IMG/VR virus record: IMGVR_UViG_3300010413_000002
Coordinates: 1 to 64,000 of that record
DNA: 64,000 nucleotides
Origin: a virus
Taxonomy: Duplodnaviria > Heunggongvirae > Uroviricota > Caudoviricetes
Reading direction: 5' to 3' (one strand)
In this document: piece by piece, positions 1-62,132 of the stretch
How positions within the stretch are numbered: the stretch's first letter is position 1
Layout: each line of letters starts with the position of its first letter
Notes under the pieces: model-generated
What the model saw: the letters and a program-made list of their open reading frames with translations, nothing else
Database searches by the model: none
Told to the model about the DNA's origin: nothing
Translations under genes and position numbers: made by a program

Positions 1-473
1 GGAGCATGATGTGTAATAACAACACATCTTTTATGTTTGTATTTATCTAATTGCCATTGTAGATTTTTTTTAGACATCAGATGTTGAATATAAGTATCTT
101 CTGCTTTAAGAATTTTTTCTTTACATTGAATGTAGCTATAGTCATTCATATATCTTTCAGCTATAACTTTATTTTCTTCTATATCTTTATTACCATATTT
201 GAAATCTGTCCAAAGTGTTGTTGCAAAGAAAACGTATCGTTCATATTCTTTAATATAAACATATCCGTCTTTCTTAAATTTATTATTTCCATAATAATAA
301 TGATTTCCAGTACATCCAAAATATTTTGAATTACCTTTAATCTCATCAAGATACCTTTGTCCCATATCTCCACAATATAAAGTTAAATCAGCCTCTTTTG
401 GCGTTTCTTTTAATGGCGAATATGTACATTGTTTAAATTCACTATGAACGTCGCTTATTACATGTAATTTCAT
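1..473 (-). CDS. Calcineurin-like metallophosphoesterase. Partial: start codon at 473, open frame runs off the window start.
   Basis: Hand translation of the minus strand from the ATG at 473 gives MKLHVISDVHSEF...LYCGDMG...GNHYYYG...ITHHAP with no stop through position 1. The DxH, GDxxD and GNH(E/D) phosphoesterase motifs are present. It is absent from the ORF track because no stop lies in the window. It overlaps the stop of 442-1221 by about 30 nt. Confidence 0.6.
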   Translation of the reverse strand, partial: MKLHVISDVHSEFKQCTYSPLKETPKEADLTLYCGDMGQRYLDEIKGNSKYFGCTGNHYYYGNNKFKKDGYVYIKEYERYVFFATTLWTDFKYGNKDIEENKVIAERYMNDYSYIQCKEKILKAEDTYIQHLMSKKNLQWQLDKYKHKRCVVITHHA

Positions 474-1221
474 AATTCCTCTTTTTATATTGAATATGTT
501 CTTTAAGAATTTTTTGCCAACGTTTTGGTTTTTTTCCTAATTCCCATCTTGGATCTAAAACTAAATCATCATATAAATCTAATATTTCTTTTTTAACTTC
601 TTTGATAGCTTCATTTTCATCTTTATCCCAACAAACTATACCTAATTCTTTTAAGGAAACACTGCATTCTTTACCATTAGAATTTAATTCTATCGTTACA
701 ACAAAAGGTTTTTTTAAAATATAATTTTCTTCATCTAATGAAGATATTTTTCTAAAAATTTTTATACATCCATTGTTCATTATTAAAAATTTAAAACTTG
801 AAAATTCTTTTTCTTTATTTCTTTTTTTAAAAACATATCTATTTTTTTTATGATTGAATTCGTCTATTTTCCATTTGTTTGCATCAATTTCAAAACTTTC
901 TATATAGTAATTAGGTAAAATAATTTTTTTTACTTCTTCGTCTTTTAATTTATTTTCTTTTTTAGGTTCTTTTAAAAATTCTTTTATTGAGACCTCTCTA
1001 CAAATTACTGGACAATCATCGAAAATTCCGAAAAATGGCATTGCCCAATGTTGACATATATATGTAAATCCATATTTTAATCTATCGTAATTAAAGAGTA
1101 TATCATGAGGATAAAAACCTAATCTTTTAAATTTATTTTTTATTTTATTGAATTTTCTTTTACTGATATTTTTTGGTAATTTAATATATTTACATCTAAA
1201 ATCCTTTTTTGTTAATATCAT
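442..1221 (-). CDS. Hypothetical protein; member 1 of a three-member paralog family (N-terminus MI-TKKDF).
   Basis: 259-aa ORF. Its ATG overlaps the Rnl2 stop (ATGA overlap at 1218-1221). It shares an N-terminal ~80-aa domain with 26748-27218 and 31212-31799 (MIxxTKKDF..., LPKN-S-K-FNKIKNKF, (V/I)S(I/V)(K/E)(E/D)FL). Confidence 0.6.
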   Translation of the reverse strand: MILTKKDFRCKYIKLPKNISKRKFNKIKNKFKRLGFYPHDILFNYDRLKYGFTYICQHWAMPFFGIFDDCPVICREVSIKEFLKEPKKENKLKDEEVKKIILPNYYIESFEIDANKWKIDEFNHKKNRYVFKKRNKEKEFSSFKFLIMNNGCIKIFRKISSLDEENYILKKPFVVTIELNSNGKECSVSLKELGIVCWDKDENEAIKEVKKEILDLYDDLVLDPRWELGKKPKRWQKILKEHIQYKKRNYEITCNKRRS

Positions 1222-2198
1222 TCTCTTTCCTTAAATGTATCAAAGAACAAATCTTTTATAAGTTCTACTGATTTTTTGTTAATAATTTTTGTAATTCTGC
1301 TTTTCTCTTCGTTGCTTACTGATTTTATATCTATTTTATCATCTTTTGCATCATTTAGCAAGTCTTTTACAAACCTTCCTAAGAATATGCCGAAGTCTTT
1401 TTTGGTATATTGTTCTTTAGAAAATACAGCATCAAACCTGTTTTCGGTAATATAGCTTGATAAATTAGATATTAGTTCATTAGCTTCTTGGCTTAATTCT
1501 TTAAGTTTAATTTTAATTTTTTTGCCTTTTTCTGAAAACTTTTTATTTTTATTTTTGATTATTACTCTGCTTCCACCATTAGTAGTATAGTCCCCTTCAA
1601 AAGGTTTGATAACTGTTCCTTCACAAGTATTATTCTCAACAATTGGCAATCCATTCAATAAAGGAATCATACTATCAAAATCATTTGGATACTCCAAAAC
1701 TTCCTCTAAAGTTCCTATTTTTAAAGGTTCTAAGTAAGGAATTTTAAATTCTTTGAAGATTTCAATTGCTTCTTTATAAGCTATAAATTTATCATCTATT
1801 TTTAAATCAAAAAATACAACGTTTATATATTTGCTATATTGTATTCCTTTTTGGACTCTTAATTCTAAAGTCTCATTATTCCAAAGACCTCCGTATATTT
1901 CTCCATATATTATGATTGGTTTTTTGTATTTTTCATATATTTGTTTTATGTTGTCTTCGTATTTAGGAAGAACATTATGAGAATTATAAAAACTTCCTCG
2001 TATAAAAGAGGAACGGTTTCCATAATCAAAACCTTCTTCATCATAATAAAGCAAGATGTTAGCTCCGTGTACTTTTTCAGTGGCACACCACTTTTCTTCT
2101 TTTGGAACTAAATATTCAGCTTGGCATAATAAACTCTTGTTAGATATTTGTTTTATACTTGAATATTCTTTAAATTTTTCTTTTTTCATTTTTTCCAA
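1218..2198 (-). CDS. ATP-dependent RNA ligase, T4 Rnl2 family.
   Basis: Motif I KVHGAN (ATEKVHGANILLYY), motif IV EGTVIKP, motif V RVIIKNKNKKFSEKGK and N-terminal KEYSS all match T4 Rnl2 (EKIHGTN, EGYVLKP, RVAIKCKNSKFSEKKK). Confidence 0.85.
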   Translation of the reverse strand: MEKMKKEKFKEYSSIKQISNKSLLCQAEYLVPKEEKWCATEKVHGANILLYYDEEGFDYGNRSSFIRGSFYNSHNVLPKYEDNIKQIYEKYKKPIIIYGEIYGGLWNNETLELRVQKGIQYSKYINVVFFDLKIDDKFIAYKEAIEIFKEFKIPYLEPLKIGTLEEVLEYPNDFDSMIPLLNGLPIVENNTCEGTVIKPFEGDYTTNGGSRVIIKNKNKKFSEKGKKIKIKLKELSQEANELISNLSSYITENRFDAVFSKEQYTKKDFGIFLGRFVKDLLNDAKDDKIDIKSVSNEEKSRITKIINKKSVELIKDLFFDTFKERE

Positions 2199-2463
2199 AT
2201 AATGTTTGATATTCTTTTTCTAGTTTATTATCACAATAATTAAAATCAAAATTTTTCCAATTAGGTTTAATTCTAAAACGAATTATTTCTTTAGTTTTAG
2301 TTATTATAAAATAAAATATATTACCAACTTTTAAATATTTTCGTTGTCCCTTTTTGAATTCTTTAAATTTAACTCAGCAATTGTTGGCAAGTGTTCATCA
2401 TTATAATCATATACTGAAACATAAACTTTTTCGTCTTTTTTATCTATTTGTTCAATACAACAT

Positions 2464-2901
2464 TCAAGTTTCATTCTTTAATAGATTTGGATTTAATTCA
2501 AAATTTCCAATAATCTTCATATCAAGACAACCGTGGAAATTTTTATATTCGTTTTGGTTTCTCAATAAAAATTTAGCACCAACATCATCCCAAATTACTA
2601 CATATCGCTTTTTAGTATTATTTGGTTCATCAAAAACTTCAATAACATCTTTTTCAAAAATAACTTTTTTATTATTGTCTAATACTCCAGTGCTTTGAAT
2701 TAAAATAATGTTTTTTCCATCTGCTCTATAGTTAGTTGGGTCTCCATCTTTTAAATGTTTATCTAAAAAAACTCTATGAAAGTTCTCGTCAGAAAATTTT
2801 CTAAATAAATTTATAACACTATAAATCTTTTTTTCAGATTTTATAATAGCTCTATAATCAAATCTATCGTACATAAATCTCCTAATCAATAAAACTAGCA
2901 T
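2464..2901 (-). CDS. Hypothetical protein.
   Basis: 145-aa ORF in the co-directional gene chain, overlapping the ssb start. Confidence 0.5.
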   Translation of the reverse strand: MLVLLIRRFMYDRFDYRAIIKSEKKIYSVINLFRKFSDENFHRVFLDKHLKDGDPTNYRADGKNIILIQSTGVLDNNKKVIFEKDVIEVFDEPNNTKKRYVVIWDDVGAKFLLRNQNEYKNFHGCLDMKIIGNFELNPNLLKNET

Positions 2902-3301
2902 CAGAAAAGCTGTCTTTTACTGTTTCTACTGTAGTTTTGTTATAGTTATTTGTATTGTTATCTTTGCTGTCCAATAGTTTTAAAGTACAATTAAATCCTT
3001 GTAAAATAACTTCTGTTATATATTGTTCTATACCTTGATTATTTGTCCATTTTCTTGTCTTTAGCGAACCCTCAACATAGAGTTTTGAACCTTTATGAAT
3101 ATAGTTTTTAACTATATTTACTAATGAACCAAATACTACAACCTTATGCCAATCTGTTTTATTTTGTCTTATTCCTTGTTTGTCTTTATAGGCTTCTGTT
3201 GTTGCTAAAGAAAAAAAAGCAACTTCGTTTCCATTTTTTGTAGTTTTTATATCTGGTTCTTTACCAACATTTCCTACTAAAATTACCTTATTAACGCTCA
3301 T
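2882..3301 (-). CDS. ssb: Single-stranded DNA-binding protein (OB fold).
   Basis: MSVNKVILVGNVGKEPDIKTT...WHKVVVFG...LYVEGSLKTRKWT are classic SSB N-terminal motifs. Confidence 0.85.
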   Translation of the reverse strand: MSVNKVILVGNVGKEPDIKTTKNGNEVAFFSLATTEAYKDKQGIRQNKTDWHKVVVFGSLVNIVKNYIHKGSKLYVEGSLKTRKWTNNQGIEQYITEVILQGFNCTLKLLDSKDNNTNNYNKTTVETVKDSFSDASFID

Positions 3302-3467
3302 TTGTTTCCTTTTTATTATTAATATTATATAAGTAATTATCTACTCCTCTTTCTTCTCTGTTTCTTGCTAATTGTTTATTTGCAAAAGTTGTAATACCAA
3401 TAATTACTCCTATTATAATAAGAACTATTGATAATTCAATAAAACTAAATCCTTTATTCGTCTTCAT
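3291..3467 (-). CDS. Prepilin-type (type IV pilin / pseudopilin-like) small protein.
   Basis: The internal start gives MKTNKG|FSFIELSIVLIIIGVI: a short basic leader, G|F cleavage site, Glu at +5 and a hydrophobic helix. The track ORF 3291-3527 carries an implausible K-rich extension that overlaps the upstream gene. Confidence 0.55.
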   Translation of the reverse strand: MKTNKGFSFIELSIVLIIIGVIIGITTFANKQLARNREERGVDNYLYNINNKKETNER

Positions 3468-4245
3468 CTTCCTCATAGTCTTCTTCTTCGTCATCTTCAT
3501 CTTCCTCCTCTTGATTATTTGTTTCATTAAAATTCGCTATAGTGCTTATTTTTAAATCTTTTTTATTACAACCTAACTCTTCAATCATTTCATCAAAAGT
3601 CAAATCGCAATATTCATCTTCCCAGTCAGCTATAAAGTATAACCTATCAGTTTCTTTAATTTTTCCGAAAAGAACTGGGTCTCTCATATCTTCTTTTTCT
3701 TCTGAAGACATTTCTTTAACGTCTTCTTGATCTTCGTTCCAATAATGATATATAACAAAATCGTCAAAAAAATCTTTTACTTTATTTAATTTTTCTATAA
3801 CTTCATCAGGAATAATTCTTGTGTAATCTTCTAAGTCAGTATCTGAAATGTGTCCTTTTCTTATTTTGTGTTTATATTTATCTAAATATTTTTGTTCAAT
3901 AAAATACGTAATACCTTTACTTCTAATTAATAATTCTTTTCCTAGAATTATAGATTTATTCATAATCTTCTTTCCTAAAGAAATTTGTCCATTAGCTATA
4001 GCTTTATCAAAAGCTTTTTCTATTTTTCTTAAATTAGTTTCTAATTTAATCTTTTCTAAAGTTGAAAATTTTTCTTTGATATATTTAAAATAGAATTTAG
4101 GTCTTATTAAACCTTTTTTCTTTTCAATTTTTACTCCAAAATTTTCATCATTATGAACCGCAATAAAACGAGTAGCTTCAATATCTGAAGTGGTACTTGT
4201 TAATGATCCAGCGGTAGAAGGTTCTATAAAAAATGTTCCTGGCAT
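3454..4245 (-). CDS. Hypothetical protein with a poly-acidic C-terminus.
   Basis: 263-aa ORF ending EEEDEDDEEEDYEEDEDE. Confidence 0.5.
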   Translation of the reverse strand: MPGTFFIEPSTAGSLTSTTSDIEATRFIAVHNDENFGVKIEKKKGLIRPKFYFKYIKEKFSTLEKIKLETNLRKIEKAFDKAIANGQISLGKKIMNKSIILGKELLIRSKGITYFIEQKYLDKYKHKIRKGHISDTDLEDYTRIIPDEVIEKLNKVKDFFDDFVIYHYWNEDQEDVKEMSSEEKEDMRDPVLFGKIKETDRLYFIADWEDEYCDLTFDEMIEELGCNKKDLKISTIANFNETNNQEEEDEDDEEEDYEEDEDE

Positions 4246-4685: not shown

Positions 4686-5144
4686 TTATTTAGAATTAGT
4701 CAAGTAAAAATCATATCCTCTTACTTGCGGTCTTGGAATTTCTATATTAAAGAATTCTTCTGCCCAAATTATAAGTTTTGTTAAATAGTCTACTGTTTCT
4801 CCTTTACTTCCAGATATATCTGAAAGACTTTTAACTCGTGTACTATATGTTTTATCTATAGAATTGTAATTTATTTCTGTAAAGCCAATAACCTCTCTTA
4901 AATCATAATCTAATTTATCAGCGTTAATAATATTACCTTGTTCTTCCATCGCTTGTTTTATGGTAGGTAAAACGACTCCATAATAATAAGCTCTTTGTCT
5001 AATTGTCGGAGATGTTTTATGTGTTTTTACGTGAATATAGAAATCTTTGTTATTCTTTTTTAATTCAGCTATATAGTCTTTAAAAAATTGCCAAATAACT
5101 TTCCAATTATCTTTATTATCTTGCTTGAAAAAGAATTTACTCAT
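4686..5144 (-). CDS. Hypothetical protein.
   Basis: 152-aa ORF. Confidence 0.5.
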   Translation of the reverse strand: MSKFFFKQDNKDNWKVIWQFFKDYIAELKKNNKDFYIHVKTHKTSPTIRQRAYYYGVVLPTIKQAMEEQGNIINADKLDYDLREVIGFTEINYNSIDKTYSTRVKSLSDISGSKGETVDYLTKLIIWAEEFFNIEIPRPQVRGYDFYLTNSK

Positions 5145-6667: not shown

Positions 6668-7990
6668 TTAAATTAGATTTTTTCTTATAAAACTTAATAA
6701 ATCTTCTTTGTTGTTTTCAACTTTATCATCAAGAACTGCATTAAATAATTCTTGTAGAATAAATCCTATAATTTTATGTCCTTTTTTTAATCCAATAAGT
6801 TTCATTATATCGTTTCCATTAATATTTAAATCTTTTACAGAAAATGCTGGAATATAGTTTTTTACTTCATTTATTCTTTTTAAAATTGTTTTCCAGTAGC
6901 TTAATTTCTTTAACCTTTTCTTTCTGTTTGCTTTTCTATCAGCTATTTTTAATCTAAGAATATCCTTATAATTAACATTGTCATTTTCTAATGCTACTAA
7001 CCATCTTCTTATAGCTTTGTCTTTACTTGTTGGCATTATGTGCCACATATGAAGCTTTATAATATTGCATACTTTGTCTATAAATTCATTACTGAATTTT
7101 AAATTTAATAAAGTTTGTTTTGCATAACTACAACTATATTTTTCGTGATTATGAAATATTAATTTATCGTTTTTTATTTGAAACTTACTTTTGCCTACAT
7201 CGTGTAGCAATCCCGCCATTTTTACTATAGGATATTTACTAGAAATATAAGAACAAGTATCTAAACAATGTTCATAAACTGTTTCATTATGATGTTCTCC
7301 GCCATCTAAATACTTAATCTTTTTTAAACAAGGAAAAACAGTTCCAAGAATTCCTGTTTTATCTAAATAAATACAAAATTGCTTTAAGTTCTTGATGGAT
7401 TTTATTATTTCTTTATTTATTCTTTCTTTAGGAATCGACTTTATTCTTTTTTTAGAACCGCTTTTTTTCAAAAGTTCTTTTAAACTAGAGTCTTCTATTT
7501 CAAAATTTAGAATTGAAGCAAATCTAAAAGCTCTTAATATTCTTACTGGATCTTCTTTTATTCTTTCAGAAGGTTTTCCTACAAATTTGATTAGTTTATG
7601 CTGTATATGACTTTGTCCTCCAAAATAATCAAAATATTCATCCTTGAAAGGATCATAAGCTATTGCATTTATTGTAAAATCTCTTCGACTACAATCTTCT
7701 TTTAGTGTTTCAACGTAATTACAAACTGGTTTTCCTATAATATCGTATCTTTCTCCTCGAAAAGTTGCGACTTCAATTCCATCTACGAGCATCACTTTAA
7801 ATTGTTCTCCTACGTGAGAAAGTTTTCTATCTTTGAATATTTGTTTTATTTTGTTTGGTTTTGCGTTTGTAACAATATCATAATCTTTTGGTTCTAAACC
7901 AAGAAGTTTGTCTCTGGTGCAACCGCCTATGAAAAAAGCTTGATAACCTTTGTTTTGAAGTATTTTTATGATTTCAAGTTCTTTTTTCAT
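6668..7990 (-). CDS. cca: CCA-adding enzyme (tRNA nucleotidyltransferase) with C-terminal HD domain.
   Basis: FFIGGCTRDKLLGLEPKDYDIVT (pol-beta nucleotidyltransferase head, GGxxRDxLLGxxxxDxDxxT) and LLHDVGK (HD motif). Confidence 0.8.
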   Translation of the reverse strand: MKKELEIIKILQNKGYQAFFIGGCTRDKLLGLEPKDYDIVTNAKPNKIKQIFKDRKLSHVGEQFKVMLVDGIEVATFRGERYDIIGKPVCNYVETLKEDCSRRDFTINAIAYDPFKDEYFDYFGGQSHIQHKLIKFVGKPSERIKEDPVRILRAFRFASILNFEIEDSSLKELLKKSGSKKRIKSIPKERINKEIIKSIKNLKQFCIYLDKTGILGTVFPCLKKIKYLDGGEHHNETVYEHCLDTCSYISSKYPIVKMAGLLHDVGKSKFQIKNDKLIFHNHEKYSCSYAKQTLLNLKFSNEFIDKVCNIIKLHMWHIMPTSKDKAIRRWLVALENDNVNYKDILRLKIADRKANRKKRLKKLSYWKTILKRINEVKNYIPAFSVKDLNINGNDIMKLIGLKKGHKIIGFILQELFNAVLDDKVENNKEDLLSFIRKNLI

Positions 7991-9117
7991 TCCTCATTAA
8001 TATCGTTAACAACTAAAAACCATATAAATCCTCCACTTATTAATATTAAAGCTATAATTTCTAATATTTTAAAGTTTCCTTTGATTTCGTTTTTTAAATA
8101 CTCAAACTCCTTCATTTCTTTTCTTTCAAAATATTGATTAGTTGCTTTTTTTATTATATCAATTATTTCTAAATTTATTTTTTTATGTTGAATTAAGTTT
8201 TCACGAAGTTCTATAAAAACTCTATTATTTTTAGACCATCCAAATGAATAAACCCAAAGAATATCAGCTTTTTCATTAGTTCCAATAATTATTATAACAT
8301 CATTCTTTTTTCCTCCAACCCATTTAGCTTCTAATATTCTAGTAAAATCTTGCGAATTATCAGTTAAAACTAATACTGAATTCAATTGTTTCTGCTTACC
8401 TACTTCTCCTAGAAATTTTGAATATTCATAATTGAACTTCTTATAGTCTAAATTAGGCAAGTTTTTTCCAATTAAAATAACTCTATCTAAATATTGATAA
8501 TCATATATATTTAAAGGATAGTTTGGTATTTTATATTTTTCTGATTTTATTAATTCTTTAGAAAACAAAGAATGCTTTGCTCCAAGAATATAATTTTTAT
8601 ATTCATGTTTGCGGGAGACTGGATCGTCTATTTGAACTTTAGTAAATCTTGGAGGTTCATTCTTTCCTTGTTTATCAATTCTATCAATTTCAAAATTACC
8701 AAAATCATGATAAACCATATAAAACTTTTCCCAAGGATAAGTAAAGCAAGTATGACAACAAGTATCATAACAAGTACTACAATTTTTTCCATCTTCATTG
8801 CAATTACAATCATGTGGATTGCAACTATAACAATCACAACTATAATCGTTTCTACACCTAGAAAAATCATCATCATAAACGCAGATTTCTTTCTCAGCAA
8901 CTTTTCTAATAACTAATCCATTTAGAATTTCAGTATCTTTAAGAATACTATGAATATTATATTTATATATACCAAAGATAATTCCTATCATCAAAACAGA
9001 ATAACAAAAAAATTCTAAAAAGTGAATTTGTCTCTTATAAATTTTTTTTATTATAAGAGGAAGTATAATTGCAAATATAATTATAATTATCAATAACATT
9101 TCAACAATGAATATCAA
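7987..9117 (-). CDS. Membrane protein with a Cys-rich extracytoplasmic domain.
   Basis: N- and C-terminal transmembrane helices. Cys cluster CDCYSCNPHDCNCNEDGKNCSTCYDTCCHTC. Confidence 0.5.
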   Translation of the reverse strand: MIFIVEMLLIIIIIFAIILPLIIKKIYKRQIHFLEFFCYSVLMIGIIFGIYKYNIHSILKDTEILNGLVIRKVAEKEICVYDDDFSRCRNDYSCDCYSCNPHDCNCNEDGKNCSTCYDTCCHTCFTYPWEKFYMVYHDFGNFEIDRIDKQGKNEPPRFTKVQIDDPVSRKHEYKNYILGAKHSLFSKELIKSEKYKIPNYPLNIYDYQYLDRVILIGKNLPNLDYKKFNYEYSKFLGEVGKQKQLNSVLVLTDNSQDFTRILEAKWVGGKKNDVIIIIGTNEKADILWVYSFGWSKNNRVFIELRENLIQHKKINLEIIDIIKKATNQYFERKEMKEFEYLKNEIKGNFKILEIIALILISGGFIWFLVVNDINEE

Positions 9118-9652
9118 CTACTACTGCATAATAAGTATATAAATAATCTTTTGGTATTTCGTAATTTTCAGTACTTATATTATAAATATCACAAACACTA
9201 CAAAATCTTTCAGCAACAAACTCTTGATAAAGTTCAGAAAATTCATTAAGATGTTTTGTTATTTCCGAAAAAGGTCTTATATATTTCTTAACTTGTTTAA
9301 TACAATCACTAAGAGGCATTATATCATATTCTTTATTCATTAAAGAAGAATCAACTTCTACTTTTAAAGGGTTATTTCCTTTTGCTCCCAAATCTTCCCA
9401 AATCTTTTGTATTTCTTTTTTGTTTTCATACATAGTTGTATAAGAAATTTTTTTATTTTCATCTGCAAATTTTTTTTCACAAATTTTTAAAAACTCGCCT
9501 TTGTATTCAGAAAGAACACAGGAATACATACCTCCTATTCTATAATAAGGAGTCCAAACAGTTCCTTTATGTTTTTCTAAAAACTTCTCTACAATATCTT
9601 GAGCTTCTTCTTTTGAATTAGCTTTTGTTAATAATATTATTCCTTTATTCAT
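9101..9652 (-). CDS. Hypothetical protein.
   Basis: 183-aa ORF. Confidence 0.5.
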   Translation of the reverse strand: MNKGIILLTKANSKEEAQDIVEKFLEKHKGTVWTPYYRIGGMYSCVLSEYKGEFLKICEKKFADENKKISYTTMYENKKEIQKIWEDLGAKGNNPLKVEVDSSLMNKEYDIMPLSDCIKQVKKYIRPFSEITKHLNEFSELYQEFVAERFCSVCDIYNISTENYEIPKDYLYTYYAVVVDIHC

Positions 9653-10187
9653 TATTTCTTTTGTTTTTATTTTTATAAATAATTTTTTCTTGAATTTTAC
9701 CAGCAGTCCAACAGTTTATTTTAATACAAACTTCAACTGCCTCTCTAGGAGATTTATTTAAATACAATGCTGTTTTAGCTTCTCTAAATCCAGCACCATT
9801 ACTGTCAAATTCTCCTTCTTTTATTTCATAAATATCTAAATTATTCCATATATGATATAACTTTTCTTGATAATAAAAAAAATAATTATTTTCTAAAATT
9901 TTATCATCTTTGAATGTTTTTGAAAATTCTGAAATAATCCATTTTCTAAATTCCACAAAAAATCTTAATATATCCAATCTTTTATTTCCTTCTGGTTTTC
10001 TATTTTGACAAAATAATTCAAACTGATTAGATTCAGAACAAGAACCAGTACTACAAAAAATTATATTATTTACTTCAAATAATTTTTGAAAATTTTCATC
10101 TTTTGCACCACTATTTCCATAAAAGCCTCCGCTATCAGTAGCTATTTCTATTCTATCTTTATAATTTTTTACTGCTAATACAGTCAT
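9645..10187 (-). CDS. Hypothetical protein; possible Ntn-hydrolase (HslV/proteasome-like) fold.
   Basis: The N-terminus MTVLAVKNYKDRIEIATDSGG resembles the Thr1 N-terminus of proteasome beta / HslV. A later NGAGFREAKTALYL resembles the GSGxxxAxxA motif. Confidence 0.35.
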   Translation of the reverse strand: MTVLAVKNYKDRIEIATDSGGFYGNSGAKDENFQKLFEVNNIIFCSTGSCSESNQFELFCQNRKPEGNKRLDILRFFVEFRKWIISEFSKTFKDDKILENNYFFYYQEKLYHIWNNLDIYEIKEGEFDSNGAGFREAKTALYLNKSPREAVEVCIKINCWTAGKIQEKIIYKNKNKRNNE

Positions 10188-22343: not shown

Positions 22344-22877
22344 TTGAATTGCAAGATGAAACTTAAAATAAGGGAATTTGTAAAAACAATAGGGGGAAAT
22401 GCAAATAAATTTGAAATCGATGGAAGTTTTATAAAATATAAAAGTTTACGTATATATATAACTACTCAACTAGAAATAGATACTCAAATTGACAAAAAGA
22501 TAAGTGGCTACCAAGAAGTACCTCGTTATAGATCTTTTTATCTTAACGAAGAAGAACACAAATTTTTAAGTGAAAAATTTAAGTTAAAAGTACAAGAAAT
22601 GGAAAAAATAAGAAAAGAAGAAGTAAAAAAGTCAGAACAAGAAATAATAGATTTATTTGAACAAAGGAGAAATATGAAAGTAGATTTTGAAAGAATGAAA
22701 AGTAATTTATCTTACTCATTAGATAAAACAAATGACATAACAGATAAAGCTTACGACGAAAATCTTAACGGATTTAATATTGATTTATTAAACGAAAAAG
22801 AAATTAAATCGTTAGCACAAGAGTATTTAGCTATTTATGAACTTTTATCAATGATAACGTGTTTGGAGGAGAAATGA
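22344..22877 (+). CDS. Hypothetical protein.
   Basis: 177-aa ORF. Confidence 0.45.
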   Translation: MNCKMKLKIREFVKTIGGNANKFEIDGSFIKYKSLRIYITTQLEIDTQIDKKISGYQEVPRYRSFYLNEEEHKFLSEKFKLKVQEMEKIRKEEVKKSEQEIIDLFEQRRNMKVDFERMKSNLSYSLDKTNDITDKAYDENLNGFNIDLLNEKEIKSLAQEYLAIYELLSMITCLEEK

Positions 22878-23362
22878 CAGTTATTACATATAAAAATGGA
22901 ATTTTGGCTTCTGATACGTTGGCAACAAATAATTCATATGATCATTCATTAAAACAACAAAAAATTTATATTGTTAAAAATGAAGTTTATGCTTTTACAG
23001 GAACAGTAAATAGAATGAATGAATATTTAGATTTTATAAAAGGAAAAATAAAAATTCTTACTTCTTGGGAGAAGAATGATATTGAAGGTATATGTATAAA
23101 TTTAAAAACTAAAAAAAAGTATCAGTTTCAAATTTGCGGAAATTATGTTTCTAAAATTGAATTTATAGATGATTTTGTTGCTTTTGGTTGGGGTAGACAA
23201 TATGCAAAAGGAGCTATGGAAATGGGAGCTGATGCTATAACAGCGATAGAAGTTGCTTGTAAATATACGATTTGTCAGTCTCCAATATATTATATTGATA
23301 TAAATGAAGAAAAACCAACAATTAAATTATACAAAAATGATAGATACAAGAGAAATTACTAG
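22874..23362 (+). CDS. HslV / proteasome-beta-like Ntn hydrolase (putative peptidase).
   Basis: RBS GGAGGAGAA then MTVITYKNGILASDTLAT (compare proteasome/HslV T-T-I-V-x-V-x-x-x-G-V-V-L-A-A-D-T-R-A-T). FGWGRQYAKGAMEMGADAITAIE resembles the GSGxxYAxxAxxA motif. Size about 163 aa. Confidence 0.5.
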   Translation: MTVITYKNGILASDTLATNNSYDHSLKQQKIYIVKNEVYAFTGTVNRMNEYLDFIKGKIKILTSWEKNDIEGICINLKTKKKYQFQICGNYVSKIEFIDDFVAFGWGRQYAKGAMEMGADAITAIEVACKYTICQSPIYYIDINEEKPTIKLYKNDRYKRNY

Positions 23363-24878: not shown

Positions 24879-26758
24879 TGATAATTTTTCGAAAATACCA
24901 ACAAAAATGTATAAATAAAGCAACAAGAGCTTTAATAGAGAGAGGAAATACAATAGGAGTAGCACCCACTGGAGCTGGAAAGACAATAATTATGTCTGGA
25001 ATAGTAAACAATCTCTTGATATTAAAAAAAGTTTCTAAAGTTTTATTTTTATGTCATAGACAAGAAATTAATCAGCAAAATTTTGAAAAGTTTATTAGAG
25101 TAACAGGTGTAACACCAACTCTTTTTATAAGTGCGTTTAAAAGCATCAAAAGAAAGATTGTTTTTGGAATGGTGCAAACGGTTTATAGGTCTTACGATAA
25201 ACTTCCAGCTTTTGATATGATAGTTGTAGACGAAGGACATCATTCTTGTGCAGAAAGTTATGATACAATAATTGAAGACCAAAAAAGAAAAAATCCTAAT
25301 TTAATAGTTCTTTTAATTACTGCAACGCCAAACAGGGGAGATAGACAAGGATTAATAAAGTATGTAGATAATGTTGCATTTCAAGTTTTTATTAAAGATT
25401 TAATAAAACAAGGCTTTTTGGTTAAACCAACGCCAATTTCAATTCCTCTTAATACCTTTGAAAATCGACATCATTTAGCAAAAGAAGAGAATTATGATTT
25501 TGTAAATCGAATTCTTTATAAGAAAATGCAAAAACATGAAGTTTTTAAGAGAAAGACTATAATATTCTGTAGAGATTTTAATCAAGTTGATAGCGTTAAA
25601 GACTATTTAGAAAAGATAGGAATAGAAACCGTTACAATTAGTTCAGAATTAAATGCTTATGATAGAAGCGAAAATCTTAGAAAGTTTGAAGAAAATGAAG
25701 TTGATATTATTTTAAATGTAGATGTATTAACGGAAGGTTATGATTATCCTCCTGCTGATTGTATAATCGTTTTACGAGCTGTAGGAAACAAGTCTTTGTA
25801 TATGCAAATGGTAGGAAGAGGTCTTAGAACTGTAGATCCAATAGAATATCCTAATGTATTTAAAAAAGATTGTCTATTATTAGATTTCGCTAGGAATCTT
25901 GAAGTTTATACTGATTTGGAACAAGAAGTTGATTTAATAGGACTCCAAAAAGAAGGTATGAATATAATGGATATTTTCAATGAGCCTCAAGAAAAAACTG
26001 AAATAACTTTAAAAGAAGTAGAAAAATCAATGCTTTTTAGCGAAGAAAGAAGAAATCTTTTTGAAAAATATAATGTCTTTTGGGAGTTTTTTGATAGTGA
26101 TATGGGATTTGTAAGTGGTTGTTGTGGTTATAAAAGTTCAATTTTTGTTGTAAATAATAATATATTTTACCAAGAAGACAAAAGAGAAAATAGCCGATTT
26201 CTTCTTATAAAAGATACGATTAATCTTGACAAATTAATTAATGATTGTATGATGGGAGAAGAAGAAAACAAAAAAAGAATAAATGAGCCAATAAATAAAG
26301 CTCAAATTAATATTCTTTTTGGAAAGTACAATATTGCAAGTTGCTCTAGCTATAGAGCGTCAGTGATGATAAATTTTGAGTTTAATAAGAAACAATTTGT
26401 TGAATTATTAAAAGGAATACAAATGAAATATAATTGGAGTAAAGAAAAAGCTACAAAATATTTAACTGATAATGAAATAACTTATAATGAATTAAAGAAT
26501 ATTTTAGATTCTGCTGAAGAAATATTTAAAAATTCAGATGAAAAAAGTTTCGTTAATAAAAATGCTCCTATAACATACTCTCTTAATTGTTTTAAAGGTT
26601 GGTTAAAAGAAAAATTAGAAGTTTGTAAGTTTTCTGATAAAATAAAAAAAACAAGTAACAATTATGGTAAAACCATAGCAAGTTCTGATTTTATAGTTTG
26701 TAGAAATATACTTTGGGAATTTGGAAAATTAATAAAAAAGGATAAAAATGATAATTAA
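24878..26758 (+). CDS. Superfamily-2 DExH-box helicase.
   Basis: Motif I VAPTGAGKT, motif II IVVDEGHHS, motif III ITATPNR, motif VI QMVGRGLR. Confidence 0.8.
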   Translation: MIIFRKYQQKCINKATRALIERGNTIGVAPTGAGKTIIMSGIVNNLLILKKVSKVLFLCHRQEINQQNFEKFIRVTGVTPTLFISAFKSIKRKIVFGMVQTVYRSYDKLPAFDMIVVDEGHHSCAESYDTIIEDQKRKNPNLIVLLITATPNRGDRQGLIKYVDNVAFQVFIKDLIKQGFLVKPTPISIPLNTFENRHHLAKEENYDFVNRILYKKMQKHEVFKRKTIIFCRDFNQVDSVKDYLEKIGIETVTISSELNAYDRSENLRKFEENEVDIILNVDVLTEGYDYPPADCIIVLRAVGNKSLYMQMVGRGLRTVDPIEYPNVFKKDCLLLDFARNLEVYTDLEQEVDLIGLQKEGMNIMDIFNEPQEKTEITLKEVEKSMLFSEERRNLFEKYNVFWEFFDSDMGFVSGCCGYKSSIFVVNNNIFYQEDKRENSRFLLIKDTINLDKLINDCMMGEEENKKRINEPINKAQINILFGKYNIASCSSYRASVMINFEFNKKQFVELLKGIQMKYNWSKEKATKYLTDNEITYNELKNILDSAEEIFKNSDEKSFVNKNAPITYSLNCFKGWLKEKLEVCKFSDKIKKTSNNYGKTIASSDFIVCRNILWEFGKLIKKDKNDN

Positions 26759-27218
26759 GACAAAAAAAGATTTTAAAGGAAAATGTATAGAATTACCAAA
26801 AAACTTAAGTGAGAAAATTTTTAATAAAATTAAAAATAAGTTTGATAAGCTTGCTTTACACTTTTCAAGTAATTATATATTTGGAGACCAAGAACACTGT
26901 CCATATATATGCTATTTATATGACGAAGCAAGTAATTATCTTAAAACTGATAATGTTCCTTATGGAGAAGAAATTTCAATAGAAGATTTTTTGAATGAAG
27001 AAGAAAATAGATGTTTGGTTGCTTATTCTTATTCAACTACTAGTATTAGTGGTTTCGGAAATATAGAAATGACACAAAATTCTAACGAACTTTATATAAA
27101 TAAAGAAACTATTGATCAATGGAGAGAAATTATTAAGGAAAAATTAAAAGAAAAGAATTTAGAAGTAGAAAAAGATAATATAATAATAATTAATCGAATG
27201 AAAATGGAAATAATTTGA
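26748..27218 (+). CDS. Hypothetical protein; paralog family member 2.
   Basis: MIIKTKKDFKGKCIELPKNLSEKIFNKIKNKFDKL...EISIEDFLNEEE. Overlaps the helicase stop. Confidence 0.55.
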   Translation: MIIKTKKDFKGKCIELPKNLSEKIFNKIKNKFDKLALHFSSNYIFGDQEHCPYICYLYDEASNYLKTDNVPYGEEISIEDFLNEEENRCLVAYSYSTTSISGFGNIEMTQNSNELYINKETIDQWREIIKEKLKEKNLEVEKDNIIIINRMKMEII

Positions 27219-27974: not shown

Positions 27975-28402
27975 AAGATTTTAAGTTGTGTTATATTGAA
28001 GGAAATTTTGCTTATTTTACTACGCAAGATTTAGATAAGCAAACTGGAGATGATTGGAACGATGCTCCTTATGATCTCAATGCTGGAGAACCATATACTC
28101 CAACTATTTATTATCCCTCTGGAAAAAAAGATCCTAGAGATTGGACAAATGGAAAACCAAATTGGGAAATTAAAAAATTAGTTTGGGAAGGAGATTTTGA
28201 CGAAGCGAAAAATATTTATATGGAAGATATAAATTGTATTTATTGTGTAGATGATATAAATAACAAAAAAGTTCCTTGGTTAGAATATCAAGGATATTCT
28301 AATGAAGATCTTGAGATTAAAATATGGGCAGGATGTTCAATTAAAGAGTTTAAAAAATTAATTAAAAAAGGCGGTGGAAAAATTTATGTGGAGGAAAAAT
28401 GA
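27971..28402 (+). CDS. Hypothetical protein.
   Basis: 143-aa ORF. Confidence 0.45.
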   Translation: MKDFKLCYIEGNFAYFTTQDLDKQTGDDWNDAPYDLNAGEPYTPTIYYPSGKKDPRDWTNGKPNWEIKKLVWEGDFDEAKNIYMEDINCIYCVDDINNKKVPWLEYQGYSNEDLEIKIWAGCSIKEFKKLIKKGGGKIYVEEK

Positions 28403-30966
28403 AAACTAAATTAAATATAGTATATGTCTTAGTAGGACCAACATCTTGTGGAAAAAGTTATTTTTGTAACGAAATGAAACAAAAGCTTACTAAACAAGGA
28501 TTAAGAACCGTTATCTTATCTTCTGATGAAGAAAGAAGAAATACATTTGGCGAAAATCTCCATAAATACAATAAACAAATGCTTCAGTCAAGCGAAAAAG
28601 CATTTAATATCTTATATTATAAATTGGAACAATTAATGAAATATCCTAATAGACCTCATTTTATATTTGTTGATACTACAGGTTTATCAGAAGATTTTAG
28701 AAACGATATTATCAATATAGTAAAAAAGACAAATTATAACCTTGGTCTTATTGTATTTACATATAAAGAAAAGTCTGAATACTATAAACACATCTCAGAA
28801 GAAGACTTAGAAAAAGGTAAACATATTATAGATAGACATATAACAAGATTAAAGAAAGACGTATTTAAAACACTTTCTAAGAAAAAATATAATTTTTGTC
28901 ATAATATAACTGAAAAAGATTTTTCAAATATAAAGTTTGAAATTGAAGATTTAGACTTATATAAATCAACCTTTTTAACAGATAAGGAAAATTATCTTGT
29001 TATAAGCGACATTCATGGACATTTTGATGAATTTAAGAAATTATTAGAATTGAACGAAATCAAAATAGAAAAAGACAGGATAGCTTCCTCCCCCTATAGC
29101 AAAATAATAATAAATGGGGATACAATAGATAAAGGTAAGCAAAGCAAAGAAGTCTTAAAGTTTCTTTTAAACAACAAAGAACATTTTAGGTTTGTCATAG
29201 GAAATCACGAAAATTTTATATATAAGTATCTAAAAGGAGAAATAGATATTAATAAGTTGAATAAGGAAATTTTAAAACAGTTTTCTTCAGCGGAGCAATA
29301 TAAAGACGATAAAGAGTTTTTTTTATTGTTGGAAGAATATATAAATTTATGCGTTCCTTTCTTACAGAACAGTTATTTTATAGTAAATCATGCTCCTTGC
29401 AAAAATAAGTATTTAGGATTGCTAAACTTTAAGTCTTTAAAGAAACAAAGAAACTACTTTATAAACGATAGAGAAAAAGCTTTAGAAGAATTAAGGTTTG
29501 TACAAGAACAAAGTCGAGGTAACTACCCACTTCATATATTCGGGCATATTGCAGTTAAGAAAGTTTCAAAAATAAAGAATGAGATTTTTACAGATACTGG
29601 TGCTGGAAATAATCAAAAATTAACTGCTTTAGAATTATCTTACAAAGAATTTAAGGACTCATATTATACAAAAAACATATCGGTCGATTGCGAAGGAGAA
29701 CCCAAACAAGAAGGTTTAGAAATAGAAAAAAAGAAAGAAGTAGATTTTGACCTATTAGAACCAAAAGAAAGAGGAAGAATTTATTGGGCAATAGATAACA
29801 AAGTTCAATTCATATCAGGTACAATGCCTCCTTCTGCTTCAAGTGATGAATATGGATTAGAAAGTTTAGAAACTGCTATATCCTACTTCGAAAGTAAAGA
29901 CTACAAATTAGAAGATTTAGTATTCCAACCAAAGTATATGGGATCAAGATGTACGCTTTATCTAAATAGAGACATTGAAAAGTGTATGATGACTTCAAGA
30001 AAGGGCTATAGGATTAGGCGTTTATATGATAAAAACGGAGAAGAGATTACTGATTTTGTTGAAATATATAACAAATTTTTAGCAAAACCAAAACTAAAGA
30101 AACTATTAGAAGACGAAACAATAGAAACTATTGTTTTAGATGGCGAACTAATGCCTTGGTATGCTCTAGGAAGAAATCTAATAGAAAACACCTATGAAAA
30201 AGTTGCTGATTGCATAGAAAATGAACTAGAACTTTTAAAGGAAACTAATTTTGAAGAAGCTTTAAGTAAAGTTGATAAAGCATACAAAGATTTTAATTTT
30301 GAAGAACGACATAAAAACGAAAAAGCTAAAGATTTAGAAGCTGAAATAGGATACACTATCTATAAAACTTTTTTAAATTATAAGAATAGCAATTTTGCTC
30401 CTTTAAAAGATGTTGAAAGTAATTTAAAAGAATTTAAAAATCAAATAAGCCTATATGGCTCTAAAGAGGAAATAGATTATAAACCTTTTGATATGCTTAA
30501 AATTATTTACAAAGACGGAACTGAAAAAGTTAAAAATCCAAAAAAGGATAGTTCGCATGATGTTTTTTGGAAAGTAAATAGTAATGGATGCCAAAAATTC
30601 TCCAAAATAGAAGAATTAAAAGAATGGTATGAAATTATAACTAAAGATTTAAAATTAGAGGGCTGTGTGATTAAACCAGAGTTCTTAAAAGATGATTGTA
30701 TACCTTATATGAAAGTTCGTAATCCTAGGTACTTAAAATTAATCTACGGATATGATTATGATGATAAGGATAACTTAGAATATCTAATTAGAAACAAAAG
30801 AACAAAAAAGAAATGTCAAGTTGCAATAGAACAATTTAAATTGGGGCTAAAGTTGTTAAATTTCAAGGTAGACGAAATTACTAAAGAAAACGAGGACTAT
30901 AAACAAACTGTTGCCAAAATAATCTTTGAGGAAAAGAAAGAGACTGAAATTGACCCAAGATTGTAA
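28399..30966 (+). CDS. Trifunctional Pnkp-like RNA-repair enzyme: 5'-OH polynucleotide kinase, metallophosphoesterase (2',3'-phosphatase) and C-terminal ligase-like domain.
   Basis: P-loop VYVLVGPTSCGKSYF at the N-terminus. Central calcineurin-type motifs ISDIHGH, INGDTIDKG, IGNHE. C-terminal region with KYMGSR (candidate KxxG adenylyltransferase motif I). 855 aa, the same domain order and size as bacterial Pnkp. Confidence 0.7.
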   Translation: MKTKLNIVYVLVGPTSCGKSYFCNEMKQKLTKQGLRTVILSSDEERRNTFGENLHKYNKQMLQSSEKAFNILYYKLEQLMKYPNRPHFIFVDTTGLSEDFRNDIINIVKKTNYNLGLIVFTYKEKSEYYKHISEEDLEKGKHIIDRHITRLKKDVFKTLSKKKYNFCHNITEKDFSNIKFEIEDLDLYKSTFLTDKENYLVISDIHGHFDEFKKLLELNEIKIEKDRIASSPYSKIIINGDTIDKGKQSKEVLKFLLNNKEHFRFVIGNHENFIYKYLKGEIDINKLNKEILKQFSSAEQYKDDKEFFLLLEEYINLCVPFLQNSYFIVNHAPCKNKYLGLLNFKSLKKQRNYFINDREKALEELRFVQEQSRGNYPLHIFGHIAVKKVSKIKNEIFTDTGAGNNQKLTALELSYKEFKDSYYTKNISVDCEGEPKQEGLEIEKKKEVDFDLLEPKERGRIYWAIDNKVQFISGTMPPSASSDEYGLESLETAISYFESKDYKLEDLVFQPKYMGSRCTLYLNRDIEKCMMTSRKGYRIRRLYDKNGEEITDFVEIYNKFLAKPKLKKLLEDETIETIVLDGELMPWYALGRNLIENTYEKVADCIENELELLKETNFEEALSKVDKAYKDFNFEERHKNEKAKDLEAEIGYTIYKTFLNYKNSNFAPLKDVESNLKEFKNQISLYGSKEEIDYKPFDMLKIIYKDGTEKVKNPKKDSSHDVFWKVNSNGCQKFSKIEELKEWYEIITKDLKLEGCVIKPEFLKDDCIPYMKVRNPRYLKLIYGYDYDDKDNLEYLIRNKRTKKKCQVAIEQFKLGLKLLNFKVDEITKENEDYKQTVAKIIFEEKKETEIDPRL

Positions 30967-30981
30967 AAAACGAGAAGAAAA

Positions 30982-31194
30982 ATGACAAAAAATTTAAAAT
31001 CAGAGACAATACAAGTGAACAATAATATTTATATAAATGGAGAACTGATAAAATTGCCTAAAAAGATAAAAAGGAATAGTCAGACTATTATAAACGAAAA
31101 TGGTAGAATTTATATTAATGGCTATAAATATTGCCCTATAAAAAAAGAGTTTAAATTTTCTGTAATAGGATTTATAAAAACAATATTATTTTAA
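30982..31194 (+). CDS. Hypothetical small protein.
   Basis: 70-aa ORF. Confidence 0.4.
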   Translation: MTKNLKSETIQVNNNIYINGELIKLPKKIKRNSQTIINENGRIYINGYKYCPIKKEFKFSVIGFIKTILF

Positions 31195-31211: not shown

Positions 31212-31799
31212 ATGATAATTAAAACAAAAAAGGATTTTGATCCGTTTTTTTTAGAAATAACTCCAAAATTAACTGCAAAAAAATACGTAGAAGTTTGTAA
31301 TAAATTTAAAGCAATGGACTTTTGGTATGAACCAAGAAATGGTTTAAAAGAATTAGAAGGAAAAATAGGTCAATGTTATTTATATATAAACGCTACTGGA
31401 CATATATTTTCTGATTATAAATTAGATAAGGAAGGATTAAAACCATTAGAAATAATTTCAGTTGAAGACTTTTTAAGAGAGGAAGATTATCCTACAATTA
31501 TTCCTTCTGAAGAAAAATATGGAGGGATTTTCTATAAGGACAAAAGATATGATGAAACACCAAAAGGCATACAGCAACTAGTAGATGATTTTTCTAAAAA
31601 TAATCAAGGTGTTGTATTTCCAAAAGAAGATGAAAGGACATATGGTACAAAAAATAAAAAAAGTTTATTGCCAAATCCAAAAAATATAGAAGAAGAAGTA
31701 TACGGTACTCCAAGGTATAATGATGTTCTTATTGAAGAAAATAGAGTTTTAATTAAACAAATATGCGAATATTTAAGAGAAAAGGAGAATGATGATTAG
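31212..31799 (+). CDS. Hypothetical protein; paralog family member 3.
   Basis: MIIKTKKDFDPFF...CNKFKA...IISVEDFLREED. Confidence 0.55.
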   Translation: MIIKTKKDFDPFFLEITPKLTAKKYVEVCNKFKAMDFWYEPRNGLKELEGKIGQCYLYINATGHIFSDYKLDKEGLKPLEIISVEDFLREEDYPTIIPSEEKYGGIFYKDKRYDETPKGIQQLVDDFSKNNQGVVFPKEDERTYGTKNKKSLLPNPKNIEEEVYGTPRYNDVLIEENRVLIKQICEYLREKENDD

Positions 31800-37092: not shown

Positions 37093-37355
37093 ATTTCTAA
37101 AAAACTTCCCTTTTAAATTTTAATATATATAATATATCTTATGGCAATTTAAACGTTGTATATAATAGATGATATGGACACGGGAGCATTACCCGTCTCT
37201 TCCACCAATTGATTATAAGGGGGAGAAATAGATTTGACATACATTCAAAGATACAATCTTTGCTCAGAGTGATTTCTGTGAAAGTCAAAAAAATAACTGG
37301 AGAAGAAATTCTTTTAGCCGCCTAAAAATTCAAAATTTTAAGACGGAACGGTTTG

Positions 37356-37388
37356 GGAGAGCCGTTTTACCAAACTCTCCTTTGTTTT
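37356..37388. terminator. Bidirectional rho-independent terminator between convergent blocks.
   Basis: GGAGAG-ccgttttaccaaa-CTCTCC stem-loop followed by TTTGTTTT. It sits at the stop of the minus-strand tdk and downstream of the plus block. Confidence 0.5.
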
Positions 37389-56557: not shown

Positions 56558-57377
56558 AATTTCCCTTTATTATTGTATTAATTATAATATAAACCATAAG
56601 AATTAATTGTCAAGAAAAATCGTACAAGGGGGGGTCTTTTTTAAAAAATAAAGTTGGGAAATTTTGAGCCGTACCCAACCCCCCATTCTATTCCCACAAT
56701 TTTTTTGCTTGAAAAATAAAACTTATACGTTAAGCTTTGAAAGAAAATCTTGTGATAAACAAGAATGCGTATACTTAACTTAAATATTATAATTTTAATA
56801 AATTCTTAAAAGAAAAAATTAAAACAGAAAACATTAATTGATAATATTTATAATAAATTTCATTTGTTTATTAACAATACAAAAGAGCCAGTTATTTCAA
56901 ATAGTGATATAATGGAGATTTATAAAGTAATTAAACAAATAGATGATTGTAATGAATTACTTGCTTATTAAGAGAGAAAAAATATGAGTATAACTAGTTT
57001 TTTAATTTTTTCAAGTTTTATATTTTTGTTAGATCCAGTATCAATTATTATACTAATACCTTTATATTTTTGTTTATTTTAATAATGGAAAAGTTTTATA
57101 TATTTCAGTTATATTTTTTAAAACAAAAACACCCCAACAAAGACCTTTGCCCTATTCAACAATAAATAAAGCTTCTTTTTGTCTATTGCTTTTTCCGCCA
57201 AGTGAGCAAGTATTACTAAAGCCTTTTAATATATCGCCTTCAAAGATTAAATTTCCTTACTTATATCTTTCGAGAAATCTGTCTCCTCCGTACTCGTACT
57301 CAATAATTTCATTGGATTTTCAATGCACCAAGACAAGGCATCAAATGAATTTTTAAATGTTTTTGTCATTTTTTATT

Positions 57378-62107: not shown

Positions 62108-62132
62108 AAGTTCCTATTTTAATGCTCGATAA

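Follow-up and report, generated by a model that had tools for sequence, protein, structure and literature searches.

Overlapping genes for an Rnl2-type RNA ligase, a two-domain protein with a predicted antitoxin-like fold and a metallophosphoesterase in a putative large uncultivated phage

At one end of IMG/VR virus record IMGVR_UViG_3300010413_000002 (Caudoviricetes), of which positions 1 to 64,000 were analysed and are called the window here, three overlapping reading frames run on the minus strand from 2198 to 1. In this order they encode an RNA ligase of the Rnl2 type, a protein of 259 amino acids (aa) that is called p259 in this text, and a calcineurin-like metallophosphoesterase. The window, with a G+C content of 24.5%, looks like a part of a large uncultivated phage, and positions 1-2198 are the end of a long leftward gene string of the early or replication type, of which these are the last three genes. 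An original prediction, made by reading the letters of the sequence, had proposed this layout, and all three frames are indeed found, co-oriented, at the positions it gave. The stop codon of the ligase gene and the start codon of the p259 gene share an ATGA at 1221-1218, immediately 5′ of which AAGGAAAGAG makes a good Shine-Dalgarno sequence. The end of the p259 gene (442) in turn overlaps the ATG of the phosphoesterase gene (473) by 32 nucleotides (nt; 442-473), and AAGAGGA precedes this start. Both overlaps can be read directly from the minus strand and agree with what had been claimed. Since all three genes overlap, they are supposed to be co-transcribed, and their arrangement points to probable translational coupling. 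p259 is recorded on a JGI source contig of 122,666 bp, and the window probably begins at the end of that contig. As had also been pointed out, the phosphoesterase is missing from the track of open reading frames (ORFs) because its frame runs off the source end.

The ligase gene (1218-2189, minus strand) encodes 323 aa if translation begins at ATG 2189 and 326 aa if it begins at TTG 2198. The ATG is to be preferred, for a 53%-identical homologue at another locus, L009, begins with MKDEKF opposite MKKEKF of the window protein. The ligase aligns end to end with T4 Rnl2 (PDB 2hvq, 4e-23) and matches Pfam RNA_ligase (3.5e-17), Pfam T4_Rnl2_C (1.2e-10; 42 bits against a cutoff of 27) and PHROG 548 (2e-51). 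It covers the whole length of the TIGR02307 model with 132.7 bits, which is below the equivalog cutoff of 197.15. Motif I (K.HG.N), with the lysine that is adenylylated, reads EKVHGAN where T4 has EKIHGTN; motif IV (EG.V.K) reads EGTVIKP for EGYVLKP; motif V (.K.K) reads IIKNKNKKF for AIKCKNSKF. Thus, the description of this protein as an Rnl2 with motifs I, IV and V intact is borne out by the alignment and by the Pfam and PHROG matches. Like T4 Rnl2 (gp24.1), the window ligase combines a nucleotidyltransferase domain with the Rnl2-specific C-terminal domain, but its gene neighbourhood differs from that of T4, and its identity to any Rnl2 of cultured phages is below 30%. It can be assigned as a bona fide, divergent Rnl2-type RNA ligase that is new within its known family. 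Reversal of attacks by host RNases is the role usually proposed for phage RNA ligases. To our knowledge, the natural role and the partners of Rnl2 remain unclear, even in the case of T4.

The middle gene (442-1221, minus strand) is the novel element of the locus. p259 gave no match in Pfam, NCBIfam or PADLOC, and tblastn with it against 50,697 phage records returned nothing. Its only full-length homologue, P0002 (216 aa, 40% identity), is encoded on a related contig, L002. An AlphaFold2 model of p259, with a mean pLDDT of 73.8, divides the protein into two domains and a connecting part. The N-domain (aa 1-88; 958-1221) bears the signature M.IKTKKDFKGKYI.LPKN.SKKKF.KIK.KF..LG, then a variable stretch, then EISIK(E/D)FL.E. 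The lysine-rich linker or insert (aa 89-146; 784-957), most of which is missing from P0002, is predicted to be disordered, with pLDDT below 50 at residues 98-142. The C-domain (aa 147-245; 487-783), modelled with pLDDT above 90, has the signature Y.LKKP..V.IE....E.IG.I.EL.IY.FG....EAI..LK.EI.DLYD.L......LGK.P..WK.IL and a predicted fold like that of PHD_like or HicB antitoxins. p259 had been called a family-1 paralog. It does belong to a multi-copy family by virtue of its N-domain, while the paralogy is confined to the first ~88 residues. As far as its sequence and modelled fold tell, p259 joins an N-domain specific to this lineage to an antitoxin-like domain that is an orphan.

Where else does the C-domain occur? 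An exhaustive search returned 226 matches, nearly all of them through this domain, and most of the matched proteins have 90-190 aa with the domain at their C-terminus. Among 36 C-domain relatives, 15 weakly match Pfam PHD_like (PF12910), with a best E value of 3e-3 and none above the Pfam threshold, and a profile of the family finds PDB 3k6q at 1.3e-3. The C-domain thus appears to represent a large uncharacterised family whose predicted fold is best matched by antitoxins of the PHD_like/HicB type. In all three bacterial contexts examined, the C-domain gene is the middle one of a tightly coupled trio (L005, 4673-5767; L011, 2294-3804; L012, 853-1954), between a gene for 113-236 aa and a gene for 96-103 aa. 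None of the three genes has a family annotation, and the downstream proteins of 96-103 aa are homologous to one another. It may be that such trios constitute a defence module, or one of a toxin-antitoxin-like type, that has not been described before. A likeness of the bacterial partner to HicA was suggested by eye only and was dropped, as Pfam, PDB profiles and PADLOC all failed to support it. The window has no homologue of the downstream protein, and p259 is followed by the phosphoesterase gene instead of a cognate toxin gene; for this reason we regard p259 as an orphan. Compared with the PHD_like antitoxin SWOL_0700 (PDB 3k6q, PF12910) and with HicB (PDB 6g1n), p259 has no recognisable DNA-binding domain. 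The bacterial C-domain cassette differs from these antitoxins by having three genes and a partner with no known toxin signature, and the phage protein differs by having a phage-specific N-domain in place of a partner gene.

The phosphoesterase is cut by the window edge (1-473, minus strand), so that its first 157 codons are seen out of an expected ~225-240 aa. The frame is open from 473 to 1 and carries SDVHS, CGDMG, TGNHY and ITHHA, in which the metal-binding residues D8-H10, G35-D36, G56-N57-H58 and H154/H155 form the first four motifs of the family. The last two (GH and G.H) fall beyond the window edge and also beyond L001, a contig of 1338 bp from a second assembly (Logan SRR14699974). The fragment matches PHROG 1649 "metallo-phosphoesterase" at 1.4e-14 and reaches 20 bits against Metallophos_2, whose threshold is 27; a full-length relative, P0003, carries precomputed PF00149 and PF12850 matches. 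The identity claimed for the protein agrees with its metal motifs and with the PHROG match. It had also been proposed that leftward extension would yield the full gene or uncover a stop. L001 lengthens the frame to 185 codons with no stop, and the full phosphoesterase was not reached. Full-length relatives of 223 aa (on L002) and 237 aa (P0003, 63% identical over the extended query of 185 aa) both have the remaining GH.H motif. The gene is thus probably intact, with ~40-55 codons lying beyond the sequence read. A search of IMG/VR and JGI metagenome contigs with the fragment gave no match, a look-up of the exact protein returned L001 alone, and no 100%-identical full-length protein was present in the protein database.

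To which kind of phosphoesterase does this protein belong? Members of its family match the NCBIfam models acc_ester, YfcE and the 3′,5′-cAMP phosphodiesterase CpdA weakly, far below the cutoffs, and are labelled "Icc-related phosphoesterase" by JGI. The best solved relative, 6unc (2e-6), covers the first motifs only. Unlike this stand-alone protein, the phosphatase domain of a bacterial-type Pnkp encoded elsewhere in the window matches bacter_Pnkp, PrpE and ApaH, and a comparison of P0003 with the window Pnkp gave no significant similarity (best E value 0.7). The phosphoesterase seems to lean to the Icc/CpdA/acc_ester type and not to the Pnkp/PrpE/lambda-phosphatase clade. At ~35% identity the family is present in 188 records of cultured phages, and the window protein can be taken as a stand-alone member of a family widespread in large phages. 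Its contexts are diverse. In the Rak2-like jumbo phages 121Q (460/461), XbC2 (89/90) and fHe-Yen9-04 (g082/g084), a member with ~34% full-length identity follows a T4-type DNA ligase gene directly or after one small gene. In this uncharacterised pair the ligase is of the T4 gp30 type and not Rnl2, and no gene like that of p259 is there. The family gene of the Brevundimonas jumbo phage Kikimora is embedded in an array of tRNA genes, that of Synechococcus phage B23 is surrounded by hypothetical genes, and that of Rhizobium phage RHph_I46 has as its sole annotated neighbour a gene for a putative GTP-binding protein.

The history of the locus can be read from related contigs, in which the order of a 152-aa protein gene, the SSB gene and the phosphoesterase gene is kept. 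In the window, the SSB gene is followed by a YopX-family gene, a small gene in two frames, and the genes of Rnl2, p259 and the phosphoesterase. In L002 and L003, SSB is followed by an 87-aa gene, the P0002 gene and the phosphoesterase gene, and the ligase gene is absent; in L004, only the 87-aa gene stands between SSB and the phosphoesterase, with neither ligase nor p259 homologue. The anchors have identities to the window of 61-63% for the 152-aa protein and 55-57% for SSB in L002 and L004, while the phosphoesterase is 61% identical in L004 and 33% in L002. No Rnl2 match was obtained in the SSB-phosphoesterase interval of L002 or L004. The only adjacency of the p259 gene that is conserved is that with the phosphoesterase gene, not that with the ligase gene: in L002 the pair overlaps by 11 nt. 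The 53%-identical Rnl2 of L009 sits among quite different genes, with no phosphoesterase found near it, and the 3 kb around Rnl2 contain no annotated phosphoesterase in any of three cultured phages. Because relatives keep the phosphoesterase without the ligase, the phosphoesterase gene is assigned to the backbone, and the genes of the ligase and p259 count as separate accessory insertions. By this comparison they look like independent insertions into a variable SSB-phosphoesterase gap. The ligase and the phosphoesterase had been taken for the classic pairing of healing and sealing. Their co-occurrence is not conserved in L002, L004, L009 or the three cultured phages, the phosphoesterase falls outside the Pnkp/lambda-phosphatase clade, and no 5′ kinase is encoded in the cassette (p259 is without a Pfam or NCBIfam match, and the only kinase found is within Pnkp). 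It seems, then, that the three genes arrived separately and are not a conserved unit for RNA healing and sealing.

Another candidate for the healing enzyme is present in the same window. The bacterial-type Pnkp (28399-30966, plus strand; 855 aa) unites 5′ kinase, 2′,3′ phosphatase and ligase domains in a single polypeptide, as in the bacterial Pnkp-Hen1 system (Pfam AAA_33, Metallophos and PNKP_ligase). It reaches 181 bits with TIGR04075, below the cutoff, and its ligase domain matches the "Rnl" subunit of the Pnkp1-Rnl-Hen1 complex (PDB 4xru_B) at 1.5e-39. In bacteria, Pnkp and Hen1 are encoded in one operon, and the Pnkp ligase is blocked until Hen1 binds (PMC4411300). The window phage differs in this respect: Pfam found no Hen1 domains in the neighbours of Pnkp, and tblastn with the Hen1 of L002 matched nothing in the window. 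In L002, Hen1 (Hen1_N and a methyltransferase domain, 411 aa) is followed by an N-domain gene (8005-9583 together), and no Pnkp lies within that contig of 9.6 kb. In the bacterial Pnkp1-Rnl-Hen1 system, healing and sealing reside on separate polypeptides (PMC4411300), as is proposed here for Pnkp and Rnl2, whereas the separate ligase of the window is of the Rnl2 type, not of the Pnkp-ligase type, and a distance of 27 kb separates the two genes, which lie on opposite strands. A further difference from bacterial Pnkp systems is the stand-alone phosphoesterase (1-473), which is unrelated to the Pnkp phosphatase. A CCA-adding tRNA nucleotidyltransferase (6668-7990, minus strand; PHROG 2244, 4e-71; Pfam PolyA_pol, tRNA_NucTran2_2 and HD) is encoded in the same leftward gene string as the ligase. 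In large phages, CCA-adding enzymes have been described in kits with RNA ligases, kinases and phosphoesterases (PMC7824862), and the combination seen here is already a known kind of arrangement (cf. PMC7824862).

The N-domain of p259 recurs near some of these genes. Two paralogues are encoded on the plus strand around Pnkp: one of 156 aa three genes upstream (26748-27218; BLASTP, 4e-12) and one of 195 aa that is the second gene downstream (31212-31799; HMM, 1e-24), separated from Pnkp by a 70-aa ORF at 30982-31194. In L002, a stand-alone N-domain gene for 113 aa starts 2 nt after Hen1, and L009 carries the N-domain twice. With a handful of further metagenomic proteins, this rare domain amounts to ~12 proteins in all, and the C-terminal regions joined to it are of at least three unrelated kinds. 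One of the fusion partners is a second recurrent module of ~80-90 aa (ALxWCxxNPMKEIxY...WKNIxEYR, or, as a looser pattern, F..EAL.W...NPMKEI.Y ... WKNI.EYR), which is lineage-specific and often fused to the N-domain. L009 has it at 2646-3602, 4686-5105 and 8001-9260, one copy standing alone in a 139-aa gene that ends 2 nt before Rnl2. The only copy of this module in the window is a truncated one of 40 aa at 57247-57369 (minus strand). How tight is the link of the N-domain with RNA repair? Two of the seven N-domain genes with context adjoin Rnl2 or Hen1, one more is two genes from Pnkp, and the others lie 3-8 genes from the nearest Rnl2, Pnkp or Hen1. Permutation within the three loci gave P = 0.07 for adjacency and P = 0.05 for a distance within two positions, for an association that was defined after the fact. 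A strong statistical link was thus rejected, given these values and the 70-aa ORF intervening at Pnkp, and it may be that accessory genes simply share plastic regions. The idea that the N-domain copies are a repeated DNA cassette was also discarded, as the DNA upstream of them is unconserved beyond the ribosome-binding site. No fold or sequence match of the N-domain to any known nucleic-acid-binding domain was obtained.

What can be the function of such an assembly of genes? The reading that we prefer, to which we give a probability of about 0.4, is that p259 is a toxin-binding decoy, that Rnl2 seals what the distant Pnkp heals, and that the phosphoesterase belongs to the backbone beside which the other two genes were inserted. 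Rnl2 would be the sealing arm of a dispersed RNA-damage kit to which the CCA-adding enzyme would also belong, and Pnkp would be its healing arm, giving both the kinase and the 2′,3′ phosphatase; judged from the domains encoded in the window, Pnkp is most likely the real healing enzyme of this phage. Such a separate ligase would make sense, because the ligase of Pnkp needs Hen1 in bacteria and none was found in the window. p259 would most likely act as an orphan antitoxin-like decoy, with a C-domain that binds and neutralises a host toxin like those paired with its bacterial relatives, and with a lineage-specific N-domain that is shared with other proteins and may serve in targeting or assembly. 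As for the phosphoesterase, trimming of nucleic-acid ends and breakdown of a nucleotide signal are both conceivable activities. A phage antitoxin mimic is known in T4: Dmd, which has no cognate toxin of its own, counteracts an RNase toxin of the host, and T4 also carries RNA repair enzymes. The likeness of p259 to Dmd is drawn at the level of concept. Several points weigh against our preferred reading. Pnkp and Rnl2 are encoded 27 kb apart on opposite strands, and a Hen1 gene may be present in the part of the 122.7-kb source contig that is outside the window; the related phage L002 has one. The antitoxin side depends on a distant fold match; Foldseek gave nothing significant, and p259 itself has no Pfam match. 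The downstream protein of the bacterial trios matches no Pfam, PDB or PADLOC model, nor HicA or RelE, which makes it a putative toxin at most, and nothing indicates that the host carries such a three-gene cassette. Finally, the DNA-ligase and tRNA-array contexts of the phosphoesterase in other phages keep alive, as a possibility, a role for it in healing ends beside Rnl2.

The last point leads to the proposal that the three genes do form a heal-and-seal cassette, in which the phosphoesterase removes 2′,3′-cyclic or 3′ phosphates, Rnl2 seals, and p259 is a physical partner or a specificity factor for one of them. The overlapping and co-oriented genes are what one would expect of such a cassette, as are the retention of the overlapping p259-phosphoesterase pair in L002 and the presence of phosphoesterase family members near T4-type DNA ligase in 121Q, XbC2 and fHe-Yen9-04 and in the tRNA array of Kikimora. 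The N-domain genes that adjoin Rnl2 in the window and Hen1 in L002, or lie two genes from Pnkp, speak for it too, together with the stand-alone module of L009, usually fused to the N-domain, that ends 2 nt before Rnl2. Nevertheless, close relatives keep the phosphoesterase without the ligase, the 53%-identical Rnl2 of L009 has other neighbours, and none of three cultured phages has a phosphoesterase annotated beside Rnl2; the cassette lacks a 5′ kinase, its phosphoesterase is outside the Pnkp/lambda-phosphatase clade, and the link between N-domain and repair genes is weak and post hoc (P = 0.07 adjacent, 0.05 within two). We consider this proposal doubtful. If the phosphoesterase does not act on RNA ends, might it degrade a nucleotide signal, cyclic or similar, or be a protein phosphatase, with its present neighbours gathered by a pile-up of accessory genes? 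The acc_ester, YfcE and CpdA models are its best NCBIfam matches, though weak ones far below the family cutoffs, and the "Icc-related" label of JGI points in the same direction. Each relative has a different content in the space between SSB and the phosphoesterase, and phage calcineurin-like phosphodiesterases have been proposed to counter nucleotide signalling (PMC7824862). Yet 6unc is matched across the first motifs only, and both the adjacency to DNA ligase and the position in a tRNA array elsewhere point to nucleic acids, so that we hold a signalling or protein-phosphatase role to be unlikely.

A different role may also be imagined for p259, namely that of an accessory for nucleic-acid binding or scaffolding: its basic linker and its HicB-like fold, partially RNase H-like, would bind RNA or DNA, or its N-domain would recruit variable C-terminal modules to a common phage machine. 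The fusion of the N-domain to at least three unrelated C-terminal regions would suit the latter, the long, lysine-rich linker with its predicted disorder would suit the former, and family members are loosely clustered around Rnl2, Pnkp and Hen1. Against this stand the lack of any fold or sequence match of the N-domain to known nucleic-acid-binding domains, a lysine richness that is expected at 24.5% G+C, and the weakness of the clustering near repair genes. These points make an accessory of this kind rather improbable. The decoy reading can itself be carried further: the N-domain, the ALxWCxxNPMKEIxY...WKNIxEYR module and the antitoxin-like C-domain might be a modular, lineage-specific anti-ribotoxin set that travels with Rnl2, Pnkp and Hen1, in which p259 would be an orphan antitoxin against the undescribed three-gene toxin cassette of bacteria, and RNA that had already been cut would be repaired by Rnl2 and Pnkp. 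We offer this extension as a speculation with a small chance of being right; if true, bacteria would have a toxin-antitoxin-like family, and phages a class of counter-defence, that are both new.

Why does this locus deserve attention? Besides Rnl2, the phage has a bacterial-type Pnkp and a CCA-adding enzyme, and a protein with a predicted antitoxin-like domain is encoded next to the ligase. If p259 neutralises a host toxin, toxin blocking and RNA mending would be linked in one transcript, and the bacterial three-gene cassette, of which there are at least 220 sequence clusters, would become a candidate defence system. If it does not, the locus would be an ordinary mosaic of accessory genes, and a caution against inferring function from a single adjacency.

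Several features upstream of the ligase gene should be described as well. A small gene in two frames (2170-2474, minus strand), found by three-frame translation, bridges the YopX and ligase genes; it is composed of a 47-aa ORF at 2331-2474 and an open stretch of ~53 codons that ends at 2170. The two pieces would join via a one-base shift near the run AAAAAGGG, giving a frame whose overlap with the ligase start would be 20 nt. Programmed slippage, a pseudogene and an error of sequencing are possible reasons for the split, and no homologue of this gene was found in related loci. The YopX-family gene (2464-2901) and the SSB gene (2882-3301), the upstream anchor of synteny, are both on the minus strand and were assigned by family match. 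Further upstream, a gene for a 263-aa protein with an acidic tail (3454-4245, minus strand) matches PHROG 10081 "transposase" at 6.5e-27, and it holds the only DNA similarity to cultured phages in the first 6 kb (62 nt, 90%, to Enterococcus phages). DNA similarity to cultured phages consists of just such matches of 60-70 bp, in a gene unrelated to the cassette. Scans for promoters and terminators were uninformative at the base composition of the window.

The start of the CCA-adding enzyme gene is overlapped by the gene of a 376-aa protein (6668-9117, minus strand), which matches PHROG 2087, of unknown function, at 1e-86 and has no Pfam match; the two genes look like a coupled pair. As for stable RNAs, ARAGORN called no tRNA gene in the window, including the vicinity of the ligase gene, and no tmRNA. 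A permuted two-piece tmRNA is found by Rfam at 37102-37383 on the plus strand (alpha_tmRNA, 98.9 bits; tmRNA_permuted, 101.4 bits), far above gathering, and a tmRNA of this form in a phage may be indicative of the host group and of translation rescue. A tRNA-like Rfam match of 124 nt at 62044-62167 (plus strand), not called by ARAGORN, scores 29.5 bits against a gathering threshold of 29 and may contain an intron. Lastly, there are two genes for HslV/proteasome-like peptidases, at 9645-10187 (minus strand) and 22859-23362 (plus strand), with a PHROG 1040 match at 4.5e-18 and a weak match to Pfam Proteasome, and such a pair is an unusual cargo for a phage.

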